Counted from the first letter of the stretch, positions 448 to 19,066 are shown. The stretch is DNA of 32,000 nt from an uncultured Chloroflexia bacterium (GCA_963718915.1 CAVRAI010000004.1:390001-422000); one strand, 5' to 3'. Program-made: numbers and translations. The notes: a model not told the origin generated them from the letters alone.

Positions 448-1920
448 TTACAGCTTCGGGATGAGGGGACCGAACTGGTCCGCGGTGGGTTCCGCTCAGC
501 AGAACCATGGCTCGCTTAGGTGGGGGACAGGTCGCCGTGCTCGCCGGAGCGTGCCGGTGGTGTCAGACATGCCTGCGCCCACCAGCGCCGGTTCACGCAC
601 ACCCAGCCGCTCTGCTGCCAGGCGACGGATGGCGGCGAACGTCACCGCGATTGGCTCGCGCTGGCTGGCGGCGTGCTCGACCAGCGCCTGGACCTCGCGC
701 TGCAACGCATCCATGCGCGGGTCGGGATGCTGCCAGGTGTAGCTGAGCGCCTCCTCATCCAACGGGCCGAGCCACCCTCGCCCAGCAGGGTCGTCCAGCA
801 AGGCAGAGCTGGGCGGCACGAGCAGACGGATGGCGTACTGGATCGGGTCAACATGCTCCACCAGCCCATGTTCGGCGATGAAGTCCAGCACGTCAAGGTA
901 GTCGCTGGCGGTGGTCCATGGCGTGAAGGCGACGAAGGTTGGGCGCATCGGGATGCCCGCGTCGTCCAGGATATCCAGCGCTTCGGCAACATCGGCGCGG
1001 CTATGGCCCTTCTTCAGATGGCGCAATACCCCCTCGCTCAGCGATTCGACTGCGGAGACGACGAAGGCGCAGCCGAGCGAGGCAAGCTCCGGGAAGATCT
1101 CGCGCCGTTCGAGAATGTGCTCGATCTTGATCGTCGCGTCGAAGGTCAGGTGTGGAAATTCGGCGTGCATCGCGCGGACAATCTCCAGTGAGTGGCGCGG
1201 ACCGTTGAGGAAGTCTGGGTCGCCGAAGGTGATATGCCCGACGCCAGCATGCGCCTGGGCGCGGATATCTTCGAGCACAAGCGGGCGCGGAATCGCGAAG
1301 AAGCGTCCGCCGTAGACGGGCGTGATCGGGCAATGGGCGCAGGTGTGCAGGCAGCCGCGCGTCGCTTCAACATAGCCCGCCGGAACGACCTCGTCGCCAC
1401 GTACCAGATAGGCGTAGGACTGCGGCGCGGGCAGCGTCTCGCGTTCGGGCGCGGCATACTCCAGCCGCCGCAGCACAGGCAGCGCATGATGGTCGCGCGT
1501 GCGCACGCCGGGTATCGTTTCGGGCGCGCTGCCCTGGTGCGATGATTCGAGCGAGTCGGCCAGCGCCAGCAGCGCCTCCTCATACTCGCCGCCGATGATC
1601 GAGTCGGCAACGGTGCGCAGCAGATAGTCGGCGTTGAGGGTGGCATAGAGGCCGTAGAAACAGATATGCGCGCTGGGATTGAGCGTTCGGACGCGCGCGG
1701 CGACATGCGCTCCCAGGCGCAGCGCGGTATGCATCGGCGCGGAGATGGCAACCAGTTTCGCCTGTGTGATAGCGTCATCGGATAGCTCGGAGACAGAGGT
1801 ATCGACCGCGACCGGCGAGAATCCGGCGCGGCGCAGAACCGCCAGAGGCGAGGCAAGACTGAGCGGCTGGTGACCCAGTTCGTAGCATGCTACCAGCAGG
1901 ATTGCGCCCGCTGCTCTCAT
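448..1920 (-). CDS. B12-binding-domain radical SAM protein with CUAEP tail; predicted selenoprotein (TGA at 498-496 read as Sec)
   Basis: Track ORF 496..1920 (474 aa) has an N-terminal B12-binding-like domain and a CxxxCxxC cluster motif (EATRGCLHTCAHCP). It stops at TGA directly after ...SEPWFC. Continuing in frame gives U-AEPTADQFGPLIPKL and then TAA (450-448). That is an exact C-U-A-E-P motif, as in the family I recall being named CUAEP/CCAEP-tail radical SAM (seleno)protein. The start ATG overlaps the yggX stop (ATGA, 1920-1917). Confidence 0.75.
467..481 (-). promoter_or_regulatory. Candidate SECIS-like stem-loop downstream of the in-frame UGA
   Basis: Minus-strand RNA reads GGACC-AGUUC-GGUCC: a perfect 5-bp stem with a 5-nt loop containing GU. 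It begins 14 nt after the UGA at 498-496. The position is compatible with a bacterial SECIS, but the stem is short and I could not fold it computationally. Confidence 0.3.
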
Positions 1921-9404: not shown

Positions 9405-10769
9405 TTAGCTGCCAGGCAATTCCTCATTCGCGCCGAAGCGGTTGGTCGCGCTGACCCGGCTGATTGTGTGATGAAGCTCCATCGCCGCCTCGAATCCAGA
9501 CCAGTCAACCGCTATGCCGCGCTCGGCGAGCACTTCCGCCGCCAGATCCGCCGGGAAGCCGCGCTCCGCGTGCAGACGAAATAGCTGCTCTCCTGAAATG
9601 GTTCCTCCCGCATCTGGTTTCATTCGATCCAGCAGGCGCAGTCCAGTGGGCAACACGCGCGCGAAACGGCGTTCTTCATCGGTCAGCAGCGTCGCGATCT
9701 GGGGGACGCGCTTGCGCTCGTCCGGCGAGAACAAGTCCTCGCCGCGCTCTACTACTGGCGCTACTAGCTCTCCCAGGAATGGCTGCTCCAGCCCAAGCAC
9801 GCGCCCATGCCGCGCCGCCCGGCGAATCAGCCGACGGATGACCGAGCCACGGCCATCTGGCCGGGGAACGACGCCTGCCAGACTGATGTAGAGCGCCGAC
9901 CGTACCGCGTCGACAATCACCCGGCGCGCGCGCTGCCGTGCTGGCGTCTCGTTGTCGTCTGGCGCGAGTTCCGCCAGACGCTGATACGCGCCCGCGAATT
10001 GATCGATCTCGAAGAGCGTCATCTTGTGCTGAAGAATCGCCGCGATGCGCTCCAGCCCCATACCGGTATCCACGCTGCGCAACGGCAGCGGCGTGTAGCT
10101 CCCGTCAGGTTGCCACTCATACTCGATGAAGACCAGATTCCAAAACTCCAGGAAGCGCGCGCACGAACAACCCGGACGACAGGTTGGCAGGCCACAGCCA
10201 ACCGCCTCGCCGCGATCCATGAATAACTCGGTGCAGGGGCCGCAAGGTCCGGGGCCGTACATCGTCCAGAGGTTGTCCTCTGGCCCCAGCGGCACAATGC
10301 GCGCGTCGGGCTGGCCGACCCGCCGCCATTCCGCGATTGTCGCTTCGTCCGGTGGCAGGCCTGACGCTGATTCTCCGGCGAAGACCGTCACCCAGACGTT
10401 CGAGCGATCAACGCCGAGCAAGTCCATCAGTTCGACCGCGAACCCTATCGCCTCATGTTTGCCGTAGTCGCCGATGGACCAGTTGCCAAGCATGTTAAAG
10501 CTGCTGAGCGTGCGCCCGTTTGTTCCGATGGCGTCCACGTCGTCGGTGCGCAAACAGCGCTGGATCGCGGTCAGGCGTGGCGCGGGCGGAGGTGTTTGGC
10601 CGCGCAGCCACGGGAGCAACGGCTGCATCCCCGCGATCACAAACAGTGTGCTGTCAGACGCAGTCAGCGACGCGCCTGCGATCTCCAGGTGACCGCGCTC
10701 GCGGAAGTATGCCAGGTAGCGCCGGGTAATTTCCGGTGATGAGAGTCCTGGCTTGCTGTACATGGTCAT
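9405..10769 (-). CDS. Alanine--tRNA ligase-like protein: catalytic and tRNA-recognition domains only (no editing or C-Ala domain)
   Basis: The 454-aa ORF carries class IIc AlaRS core motifs: FVIAGMQP, IQRCLRTDDVD, MLGNWSIGDYGK, GPCGPCTELF, FWNLVFIEYE, VDTGMGLERI and RGFPADL. The protein ends where canonical AlaRS (roughly twice as long) continues into the editing domain. SD GGAAGGGAGG lies 7 nt upstream of the ATG, and an Ala T-box leader precedes the gene. Confidence 0.85.
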   Translation of the reverse strand: MTMYSKPGLSSPEITRRYLAYFRERGHLEIAGASLTASDSTLFVIAGMQPLLPWLRGQTPPPAPRLTAIQRCLRTDDVDAIGTNGRTLSSFNMLGNWSIGDYGKHEAIGFAVELMDLLGVDRSNVWVTVFAGESASGLPPDEATIAEWRRVGQPDARIVPLGPEDNLWTMYGPGPCGPCTELFMDRGEAVGCGLPTCRPGCSCARFLEFWNLVFIEYEWQPDGSYTPLPLRSVDTGMGLERIAAILQHKMTLFEIDQFAGAYQRLAELAPDDNETPARQRARRVIVDAVRSALYISLAGVVPRPDGRGSVIRRLIRRAARHGRVLGLEQPFLGELVAPVVERGEDLFSPDERKRVPQIATLLTDEERRFARVLPTGLRLLDRMKPDAGGTISGEQLFRLHAERGFPADLAAEVLAERGIAVDWSGFEAAMELHHTISRVSATNRFGANEELPGS

Positions 10770-15121: not shown

Positions 15122-15339
15122 GGAGTACGCTCCTCTATTGTGTATCGTGATGACAACTCATGTGCGGATTGGCGAACATACCATACAGCAAGCCCATCCG
15201 GTCAGACGGATGCTGCCGGGCGGCGCAACGGCCAGTATATCCTAAAGAGGGTCCCGTTGGCTTGCAAACAGCGCCCGAATGGGCCATACTGGGGCGCGGA
15301 AGTCCAATTTTTCCGGGATCAGTCAATGCGAGGCCAGCT

Positions 15340-16305
15340 ATGCCCGACACAGACAAAACATCTGATGACTCGGTGGAGCAGCCCAGCCTGTTTTTCCCCG
15401 ACGCCGCTACGCCAGTGGCTGGGCCGAAGCAGGAGTCAGTGGTGATTGTTCCCACGCTCACCGTGACGTCAGTGTTAGGCGCATGCGCCTTGCCTTATCA
15501 GGAGTATCTGCGCCGGACCGATCACTCGGCCTACACGATCACCTGCTTTCTCTCGGATTTGCGCCTGCTGACCGAGTTTCTCGGGCGCGAGACGCCGCTA
15601 CGCTCGATTACGCAGGATTCACTGGCGGGCTGGCTTGGCCACCTGCGCTGGGATCGCGCCACTGAGCCAGCGCCAAAGACGATGGCGCGGCGCGCTACCT
15701 TCCTGAAGAATTTCTTCGGCTGGCTGGCGAAGGAGCAGGTGCTCGCGGACGACCCATCGCAGCGTATCGTGCTGACGCGGCCGGCGCCCCCACTTCCAGA
15801 ATTGCTCTTCGAGGATGAGATTGCCCGGCTGGAGCAGGCTGCGGAGGCCGACCCGCGCTGCCAGTTGCTGGTGATGACGTTGCTGGCGACAGGTCTGAAA
15901 AAAGAGGAATTGATGGCGGTGGCGCTCCGTCATGTGGACCTTTCGGACCCTGAGCAACCCGCGCTCGAAGTGCATTTCCCCGGCCAGGCGAAGCGGCGGC
16001 GCGAGCGGCGTATGGCGCTGCCAGCGGAATGGACGGATGTCTTCCAGCGCTATGTGGAGCGCTACCAGCCACGCGAACGCCTCTTCGAGTGTACGGATCG
16101 TAATCTGAATTATGTGCTTGCCGCCGCCGTCAAGCGCGCCGACCTCGAGAAGCGCGTAACGTTGCAGCTGCTGCGCGACATCTTCGCGGTGCGCCAGTTG
16201 CGCGGGGGCGTCTCGATGGATGACCTGCGCGAAAAGCTTGGCTTATCGGAAGAAGCCTGGTATGAGATTGCCGAGAAGTATCGCAAGCTTGCGTTCCCGG
16301 CCTAG
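15340..16305 (+). CDS. Tyrosine-recombinase (XerC/XerD)-like protein with non-canonical active-site residues
   Basis: SAM-like N-terminal domain (YQEYLRRTDHSAYTITCFLSDLRLLTEFLG) and a C-terminal catalytic-fold region (LLATGLKKEEL, LQLLRDIFAVRQL, LGLSEEAWYEIAEKY). The start is set at ATG 15340; the track start at 15160 adds 60 non-homologous codons. Confidence 0.65.
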   Translation: MPDTDKTSDDSVEQPSLFFPDAATPVAGPKQESVVIVPTLTVTSVLGACALPYQEYLRRTDHSAYTITCFLSDLRLLTEFLGRETPLRSITQDSLAGWLGHLRWDRATEPAPKTMARRATFLKNFFGWLAKEQVLADDPSQRIVLTRPAPPLPELLFEDEIARLEQAAEADPRCQLLVMTLLATGLKKEELMAVALRHVDLSDPEQPALEVHFPGQAKRRRERRMALPAEWTDVFQRYVERYQPRERLFECTDRNLNYVLAAAVKRADLEKRVTLQLLRDIFAVRQLRGGVSMDDLREKLGLSEEAWYEIAEKYRKLAFPA

Positions 16306-18466: not shown

Positions 18467-19066
18467 TCATCCACTCTCATTGCCATTCGACGTCAGCGCC
18501 CGCGCAATCCCCGCATGGAGTGTCGCGGCGTCAGTCTCGCCTGTCCAGATCGCGCGCACGATGCCACGTCCGTCGATCAGCACCAGCGAGGGGTAGTAGG
18601 CGATCCCATAGCGCGCGGCAACCTGGCCATCGGTGTCCAGCAGCACCGGATCGGTGATAGCGAGGCGCTGCATCATCAGGTTGGGGAGATTTGGCAGCTC
18701 AGATGGCGAGTCAATATAGACGGTGTGTAGCGCTGGGAATCCAGCGGTGACGGCGTGAGTGGACTGCATTTGCAGCAGGCAATGCGTGCAGAGTGTGTAG
18801 AAAAAGACCAGTAGTGTCGGTTTGCCTGTGGCAGGCGCGAAGGTAGCGGGCGCTGGCAACTGGACGCCGGCCCGCTCGGCGGGCAGCGCAAACGCTATTG
18901 CAGGCCGATTGATATGGTGCTGTGTCGCCGTCGCTGAAGGCGCGGTGGCGCGGAAGGCGACCACTAGCACGATGGCCAGCAATGCCGATGCCAGCATCCC
19001 ACCGCGAAGCGTCTGTGAAACGGTAGGTGGTGATTTCCGCATGTGCGCCGTAAATGAGTCGATCAT
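18467..19066 (-). CDS. Membrane-anchored thioredoxin-fold thiol-disulfide oxidoreductase (TlpA/ResA-like)
   Basis: One N-terminal TM helix (MLASALLAIVLVVAF) and a CxxC motif in LLVFFYTLCTHCLLQ. The C-terminal fold signature is YGIAYYPSLVLIDGRG. Confidence 0.75.
   Translation of the reverse strand: MIDSFTAHMRKSPPTVSQTLRGGMLASALLAIVLVVAFRATAPSATATQHHINRPAIAFALPAERAGVQLPAPATFAPATGKPTLLVFFYTLCTHCLLQMQSTHAVTAGFPALHTVYIDSPSELPNLPNLMMQRLAITDPVLLDTDGQVAARYGIAYYPSLVLIDGRGIVRAIWTGETDAATLHAGIARALTSNGNESG

Follow-up and report, generated by a model that had tools for sequence, protein, structure and literature searches.

A Probable SECIS-Directed Selenoprotein of the CUAEP/CCAEP-Tail Radical SAM Family in Ktedonobacterales (Chloroflexota)

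Introduction

The CUAEP/CCAEP-tail radical S-adenosylmethionine (SAM) (seleno)proteins are a curated protein family for which a single preprint was found in the literature, naming the family and calling it uncharacterized (Haft and Gwadz, 2022; bioRxiv 10.1101/2022.07.06.499078). Chemistry has been described for ArsL, the RCCLKC-tail radical SAM enzyme of arsinothricin biosynthesis, in which SAM is cleaved to a 3-amino-3-carboxypropyl species that is joined to As(III) held by the C-terminal cysteines, removal of the tail abolishing product formation with SAM cleavage being retained (10.1101/2024.02.01.577332; 10.64898/2026.04.29.721666). Here we describe a CUAEP/CCAEP-tail gene on the minus strand of a 32,000-nucleotide (nt) stretch of DNA from an uncultured Chloroflexia bacterium (GCA_963718915.1, CAVRAI010000004.1:390001-422000), referred to below as the window, whose positions are used throughout unless another contig is named. 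Positions 448-1920 very probably constitute a single gene encoding a 490-residue selenoprotein of this family in a member of the Ktedonobacterales (Chloroflexota), in which an in-frame UGA is recoded under the direction of a selenocysteine insertion sequence (SECIS). What was observed is an open reading frame (ORF) that continues past the UGA, a match to the family, orthologues with Cys codons at the same column, a tail conserved at the level of protein and, in TGA forms only, a hairpin that covaries.

A reference point for the RNA element is the SECIS of Escherichia coli fdhF, a stem-loop located just 3′ of the UGA in which a G and a U of the apical loop touch SelB.

The Reading Frame and the Family Profile

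A mechanical ORF list stops at the TGA, giving a minus-strand ORF at 496-1920 whose translation is 474 amino acids (aa) long and ends ...PHLSEPWFC. The initial annotation, made from the sequence of the window, had described precisely such a 474-aa ORF ending ...SEPWFC-TGA and had proposed that the ORF track cut the gene short, and translation agrees with it in both respects. The invariant Cys474 is encoded by TGC at 501-499 with the TGA following directly at 498-496, such that TGC TGA GCG GAA CCC spans 501-487 on the minus strand. Past the TGA the same frame runs through 15 sense codons at 451-495 (GCG GAA CCC ACC GCG GAC CAG TTC GGT CCC CTC ATC CCG AAG CTG), encoding AEPTADQFGPLIPKL and comprising the family-defining AEP together with a conserved T-x-x-Q-[LFV], before TAA at 450-448. 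The A-E-P and the 12 further sense codons that had been read at this point are present as described, and with UGA taken as U the C-terminus is CUAEPTADQFGPLIPKL. The predicted selenoprotein coding sequence occupies 448-1920, with 490 codons plus the TAA, and judged by the comparative evidence set out below the UGA at 496-498 is almost certainly read as selenocysteine (Sec), residue 475 of the 490-aa product.

The curated family named in the initial annotation exists. It is NCBIfam NF040546.1 ("CUAEP/CCAEP-tail radical SAM (seleno)protein"), whose model is of the equivalog type and has a curated cutoff of 500 bits. Scored with C in place of U, the read-through protein reaches 712.5 bits over profile positions 1-467 of 468, so the proposed check of the 490-aa protein against the family profile came out well above the cutoff. 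The ORF cut at the TGA scores 690.0 bits and ends at profile position 457, and because only the extended protein reaches position 467 the tail, worth 22.5 bits, belongs to the curated model. The C-terminal C-[U/C]-A-E-P motif that NF040546 requires is present, and the window protein shares the CUAEP tail, the CxxxCxxC core and the full profile with the family, with no family-defining difference. The window gene adds a member to a selenoprotein family that is already known and curated, though biochemically uncharacterized, and in which recoding as such is to be expected.

The nearest database proteins, with up to 92% identity, come from metagenome-assembled genomes of Ktedonobacterales, several of them carrying the NF040546 family name at NCBI and most ending ...WFC, while full-length Cys-form homologues read ...WFCCAEPT[AS][DE]Q[LF].. 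at the same place. No protein identical to that of the window was found in the collections searched. An exhaustive homologue search yielded 457 clusters (50% identity) at E <= 1e-30, and among 39 cluster representatives inspected about half end W[FY]C and about half run on into CCAEP. Standard ORF callers and most database entries end the gene at Cys474, whereby the family-defining residue is lost, and annotation should give a single selenoprotein ORF of 490 codons (448-1920), entering 496-498 as a translation exception.

Conservation of the UGA Column and of the Tail

A scan for W-F-C-[TGA/TGC/TGT]-A-E-P with one genome per species returned at least 120 stretches, and among the matches listed 102 species-level members, the window included, were confirmed by tblastn. 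These listed species belong to more than 10 phyla, among them Chloroflexota, Actinomycetota, Myxococcota, Nitrospirota/Nitrospinota, Planctomycetota, Acidobacteriota, Rokubacteria and Gemmatimonadota. At the column of the UGA, 67 have TGA, 26 TGC and nine TGT, the 35 Cys-codon species being the CCAEP-type orthologues that had been anticipated for this position. In four other Ktedonobacterales lineages, with 92, 71, 70 and 66% protein identity to the window, the codon is TGA and is followed in frame by AEPT. A TGA-type orthologue of 71% identity is found in CP126532.1 (GCA_030167145.1), a 5.07-Mb Ktedonobacterales metagenome-assembled genome.

Beyond AEP the tail is conserved as protein in both classes of gene. 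None of the 67 listed TGA forms has a stop within the 10 codons past the UGA; Thr at +4 is found in 61 of 67 TGA and 31 of 35 Cys forms and Gln at +7 in 63 of 67 and 32 of 35 respectively, with the wobble base varying at both residues, so that TGA and Cys forms have the tail motif AEPT-x-x-Q-[LFV] in common. When the window is set against its 92%-identical relatives (L001-L005), the 48 nt that follow the UGA show two synonymous changes and a different stop codon (TAA/TAG) and are otherwise identical, compared with nine mismatches over the 60 nt leading up to the UGA; the likeness stops exactly at the second stop, past which there is no similarity. The 15 tail codons appear from this pattern to evolve as coding sequence under purifying selection, and the protein-level conservation expected of them is borne out both by the synonymous-only changes and by the retention of Thr(+4) and Gln(+7).

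That the TGA arose as a recent nonsense mutation of TGC in a CCAEP-type gene, leaving a pseudogene, is conceivable in that the two codons are one transversion apart. A TGA common to relatives of 92, 71, 70 and 66% identity in the order and to 67 listed species in more than 10 phyla is at odds with a recent origin, as are purifying selection on the tail and RNA features specific to TGA genes, and the comparative data have effectively refuted this explanation already, leaving it next to no probability.

A second alternative takes the TGA as a real stop and the product as a 474-aa protein ending in Cys; the conserved 48 nt would then be an untranslated RNA element, for example a 3′ hairpin with a regulatory or stabilising role. 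Gene callers do stop at the TGA, a conserved hairpin does sit downstream (see below) and the TGA-ended ORF passes the family cutoff by itself with 690 bits. This would leave unexplained a downstream frame that spells AEPT-x-x-Q-[LFV], translated as protein in the Cys-codon orthologues, in which the wobble varies and codon positions 1 and 2 are fixed; nor does it account for a frame open over at least 10 codons in every listed TGA species (67/67) or a tail that raises the curated-profile score by 22 bits, and no U-tract terminator was found downstream. Termination at this TGA is accordingly regarded as highly improbable.

A SECIS-Like Hairpin Downstream of the UGA

The minus strand at 465-483 can form a SECIS-like hairpin with a 5′ arm at 483-477 (GCGGACC), a loop at 476-472 (AGUUC) and a 3′ arm at 471-465 (GGUCCCC). 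The stem comprises an uninterrupted run of five pairs, a C.C mismatch and a single outer pair, and the second and third nucleotides of the loop are G and U. Its core, GGACC-AGUUC-GGUCC at 481-467, begins 14 nt from the UGA and lies within the minimum free energy (MFE) fold. The initial annotation had pointed to this hairpin as being in a plausible SECIS position, and it proves to be not merely present but TGA-specific and covarying. Perfect stems of at least 5 base pairs (bp; median 7) occur at exactly the same offset in 55 of 66 listed TGA species and the loop AGUU likewise in 55 of 66, whereas in Cys-codon species the stem at this site is shorter than 4 bp in 32 of 35 and reaches 4 bp or more in three of 35 (Mann-Whitney p = 3e-11 for best stem length, TGA against Cys forms). 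Rare variants retain a hairpin whose loop contains G-U, as GGUC in L048 and GGUUC in L035.

The types of pair in the stem vary: one position has C-G in 14 cases, U-A in six and G-C in four, and another has A-U in 13 and G-C in 10. In the 24 species aligned in the register of the window there are 35 compensatory (doubly changed) cells compared with 12.5+/-3.1 in shuffles (0/500 as high), and the covariation score of 0.553 falls to 0.223 on shuffling (0/500 as high) and does not exceed 0.208 if the 3′ arm is shifted by 1-3 nt. The hairpin has also left its mark on codon choice. In TGA forms Gln is CAG in 63 of 63 and Leu is UUR in 33 of 33, while in Cys forms Gln is CAA in eight of 32 and most Leu codons are CUC. 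The hairpin RNA limits synonymous codon choice only in TGA genes. This imprint offers a clean example of RNA and protein constraints acting on one sequence, and the SECIS of the CUAEP/CCAEP family can now be described in terms of its fixed position, its AGUU loop and its covariation.

Compared with the fdhF SECIS, the hairpin described here is alike in lying 12-14 nt past the UGA, in its upper stem of 5-7 bp with a loop of 4-5 nt, and in the G and U that form the second and third loop nucleotides (nt 24-25 counted from the U of UGA), and it shares its nucleotides with coding sequence. It differs in its loop, AGUU(N) here and GGUC in fdhF, and in that no bulged U is evident. Taken together, the conserved TGA, Cys in the same column, the shared tail motif and the covariation of the hairpin exceed what chance can produce; the earlier judgement that an exact motif match across a stop codon was unlikely to be fortuitous is upheld by a TGA column kept in 67 listed species and by the covarying hairpin.

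In the mechanism proposed, the UGA at 496-498 would not end translation. The stem-loop at 465-483 (loop AGUUC), 12-14 nt 3′ of the UGA, would serve as a bacterial SECIS recruiting SelB with Sec-tRNA(Sec), Sec would be inserted at position 475 and translation would run on for 15 codons to the UAA at 448-450.

A second, optional stem of 7 bp (GUUCUGC / UGA / GCGGAAC) can form at 489-505 on the minus strand, with the UGA as its 3-nt loop, and is found in the MFE fold. Such a UGA-enclosing stem is possible in 54 of 67 TGA forms compared with 13 of 35 Cys forms among the listed species (p = 2e-5), the difference being due to a preference for a purine at the wobble position of the Ala codon; the neighbouring Pro and Thr wobble positions have no purine bias. 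The stem may represent a lower SECIS helix or an effect of termination context.

In a few genes with TGC or TGT (L052, L097, L128 and L022) a partial hairpin or an AGUU loop is still found at the SECIS position, with 6 bp in L052, a Cys-codon gene, and the sequence GCGGGGCAGUUCGGUCCG in L128. Cys-codon genes with such a residual hairpin may be recent conversions from Sec to Cys.

Selenocysteine Machinery and the Specificity of Recoding

A number of observations weigh against Sec insertion at this site. No tRNA-Sec was detected by ARAGORN in the window or in about 130 loci of relatives, and SelA and SelB were not found by tblastn with E. coli queries in the window or in any of the loci, a result that says nothing on the rest of the genome. 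Neither the 32-kb window nor these loci yielded any of the four genes selA, selB, selC (tRNA-Sec) and selD. A scan for UGA followed by a hairpin gave none in frame with a credible gene, so that no second selenoprotein gene was recognised in the window. The stem of the window itself has only five contiguous pairs and its single-sequence fold is unremarkable (z = -1.47), and no Rfam SECIS model matches, with no hit in the window at gathering thresholds and only noise at 380-560 at E up to 10. The scan across species demanded W-F-C-x-A-E-P, such that AEP is present in the matches by construction, the later codons not being imposed. Likewise, the alignment used for covariation was picked for pairing in the register of the window, which inflates the percentage paired; the compensatory counts are informative despite this, as is the contrast between TGA and Cys forms, which is free of that selection.

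Genes for the Sec machinery are normally unlinked to selenoprotein genes. We infer both Sec insertion itself and the presence of the machinery in this genome. On Sec use in Ktedonobacteria, the literature search returned only an ambiguous figure legend listing K. racemifer AhpC. In the window the AhpC/TSA-like gene at 18467-19066 was considered as a second selenoprotein gene and rejected, having an ordinary CTHC motif.

The UGA could be decoded without Sec, by a near-cognate Trp or Cys tRNA or by Cys-tRNA(Sec), giving a product of the CCAEP or CWAEP type, in a lineage that has lost or rarely uses selenium. In keeping with this no Sec machinery was found in the window or in the loci of relatives, Cys is tolerated at the position in a third of the listed species, and Dictyobacter arantiisoli (L021), a cultured member of the same class, has TGC. 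A covarying hairpin with G-U in its loop, at SECIS distance and in TGA forms only, points instead to SelB-dependent decoding rather than leaky read-through, and if a lineage lacked the machinery TGC should have become fixed in it, as has happened in many relatives. Decoding by any of these tRNAs is considered very unlikely and insertion of Sec is preferred.

TGA is the commonest true stop in the window, ending 10 of the 16 Pfam-supported genes, yggX (see below) included. Genome-wide reassignment of UGA, which was considered, is ruled out by these 10 of 16 confident genes, and read-through at 496-498 is therefore site-specific.

Relationship to ArsL and the Cys-Sec Tail

Pfam Radical_SAM (PF04055) matches residues 185-325 of the window protein with 49 bits against a cutoff of 29.5, and within this region the CxxxCxxC motif formed by C190, C194 and C197 (minus strand, 1330-1353), identified from the sequence and from PF04055, provides the ligands of the radical SAM [4Fe-4S] cluster. 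Across 41 diverse family members the only invariant cysteines are these three and C474. The N-terminal residues 8-120 match Pfam B12-binding with 29.7 bits, which is under its gathering score (32.1). For a Cys-form homologue with 68% identity, the AlphaFold model has a predicted local distance difference test (pLDDT) score of 83, the tail being of moderate confidence, and its best structural match is AprD4 (PDB 6fd2; E 5e-18, template modelling (TM) score 0.62) with cobalamin enzymes next; no close solved structure was found by sequence search. The two-domain fold of the model is as in AprD4, MgmA, OxsB and TsrM, and the enzyme combines a Rossmann-like N-domain with a radical SAM barrel that bears the CxxxCxxC [4Fe-4S] site. 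AprD4 shares this plan of a radical SAM domain with a cobalamin-domain-like N-terminal fold, but with about 21% sequence identity and as a diol dehydratase without a Cys/Sec tail it is alike in fold and not in function.

After NF040546 the next family in score is ArsL (NF040542), with 312 bits, the ArsL cutoff of 450 not being reached. The most distant cluster representative from the homologue search (P0232) ends RCCIKC and scores 477 bits on the ArsL model, making it a bona fide ArsL, and the window protein has 33% identity to it over 414 aa (E 4e-80). The CUAEP/CCAEP-tail family and ArsL, which forms C-As bonds, are sister families. The two have the domain plan in common, as well as a short C-terminal tail that carries a vicinal Cys pair and aligns with C474. 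They differ in that the window tail is C-U-A-E-P with about 12 further residues rather than R-C-C-L-K-C, and in that no arsM or other ars genes are found in the window, the neighbouring genes of the CUAEP/CCAEP family being those for YggX, NfuA-like, DUF169 and ATP-grasp ligase proteins.

Three homologues, P0173, P0227 and P0228, with the tails CCAMP, NFCCAEP and CCAAP, score 434, 363 and 333 bits and lie under the NF040546 cutoff, the ArsL-model score of P0227 (333) being nearly equal to its NF040546 score. Intermediate CC-tail families seem to form a halo between the NF040546 and ArsL models.

By analogy with ArsL the most likely role of the Cys-Sec tail is that of a mobile arm presenting a soft-atom co-substrate, and Cys474-Sec475 would hold or carry such a co-substrate, or a redox equivalent, into the site of SAM cleavage. 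It counts against this view that the enzymatic mechanism is drawn wholly by analogy from ArsL, whose model cutoff the window protein does not reach, and that the window protein has two chalcogen ligands (one of them Sec) where ArsL has three.

In mammalian thioredoxin reductase a C-terminal GCUG motif acts as a redox arm. A comparable function is the main alternative here, if the less likely one, in which the tail would not bind substrate but Cys474-Sec475 would form a redox selenenylsulfide on a mobile arm that re-reduces or re-oxidises the active site at each turnover. The Cys-Sec pair is indeed vicinal, near the C-terminus and interchangeable with Cys-Cys, and the moderate confidence with which the tail is modelled is consistent with mobility; by contrast, the C-terminal Cys motif of ArsL binds substrate and is dispensable for SAM cleavage, and neither a thioredoxin nor a reductase is found as a recurrent neighbour, which favours an arm that presents a co-substrate.

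Neighbouring Genes and a Possible Pathway

Immediately upstream on the minus strand, at 1917-2237, lies yggX, encoding an Fe(II)-trafficking / oxidative damage protection protein (PF04362, 134 bits; NF003817, 140 bits against a cutoff of 74). The yggX stop overlaps the start codon of the radical SAM gene in an ATGA at 1917-1920, and the two genes are therefore translationally coupled. The pair is kept in all Ktedonobacterales relatives examined, the other neighbours differing, and YggX would most likely supply or protect iron for the iron-sulfur (FeS) cluster. In L013, a single 2.8-kb Logan contig, positions 881-2605 are called as a 574-aa YggX-radical SAM fusion (P0110) with the tail CCAEPTADQLGSLISRPG, which could be real, and support functional coupling, or could result from an error of a single base in the assembly where the ATGA overlap lies.

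Across the 102 listed species the recurrent neighbours are an ATP-grasp protein of the L-amino-acid-ligase type (PF13535 + PF18603) in 37, an NfuA-like protein in 30, YggX in 18 and DUF169 in 14, these counts being lower bounds because many contigs are short. YggX was considered as a universal partner and rejected, since it adjoins the gene in only 18 of 102 species with NfuA-like or DUF169 proteins being found elsewhere instead. Genes for NfuA-like proteins and YggX never occur together at the listed loci. Typical orders are ATP-grasp, radical SAM, NfuA; radical SAM, NfuA, ATP-grasp; or YggX, radical SAM (species loci L015-L134, for example L036, L042, L054, L066, L082 and L087), with L036 and L042 having the full set of ATP-grasp, radical SAM and NfuA-like genes. 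The recurrent cassette suggests a pathway that includes ligation and has an iron or FeS helper of its own.

One reading that would join these observations, although tentative and rather unlikely as a whole, is that the CUAEP/CCAEP enzymes form a widespread second branch of the non-canonical radical SAM chemistry of ArsL, extending over more than 10 phyla. The Cys-Sec tail would present a chalcogen or metalloid, perhaps selenium or sulfur itself, and SAM's 3-amino-3-carboxypropyl fragment would be joined to this soft atom to give a non-proteinogenic amino acid that the often adjacent ATP-grasp ligase might build into a small peptide, with an iron/FeS helper (YggX, NfuA-like or DUF169, apparently interchangeable) keeping the cluster working. 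If true, this would be a new and broadly distributed carbon-heteroatom bond-forming pathway.

The sister status to ArsL, the invariant FeS triad with the Cys-Sec pair and the recurrent neighbours make a testable case for where the chemistry of the family is to be sought.

Surroundings of the Gene in the Window

Directly after the TAA, positions 1-447 of the window have 45% GC compared with about 62% elsewhere, and a minus-strand ORF begins at 300 and continues beyond the window edge. The 92%-identical relatives have unrelated DNA at this junction, in L001 from 2823 and in L002-L005 from just past the tail stop; among the genes of this DNA in L002-L005 are those for a tyrosine integrase, 98 nt away, and a DDE transposase, as well as a helix-turn-helix/excisionase-like gene. 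The 3′ end of the radical SAM gene looks like an insertion hot spot. No att-like direct repeats of at least 13 nt of the 3′ end of the gene were found in the neighbouring island of L002.

Elsewhere in the window, the minus-strand gene at 9405-10769 encodes a 454-aa protein that matches only the alanyl-tRNA synthetase (AlaRS) catalytic core (PF01411, positions 1-434 of 552), and no editing or C-terminal AlaRS domains are encoded downstream of it, such that its product may be a stand-alone AlaRS-like paralogue. On the plus strand, a tyrosine recombinase (Phage_integrase with an N-terminal SAM-like domain) is encoded at 15160-16305, between Tex and GH113-like genes.

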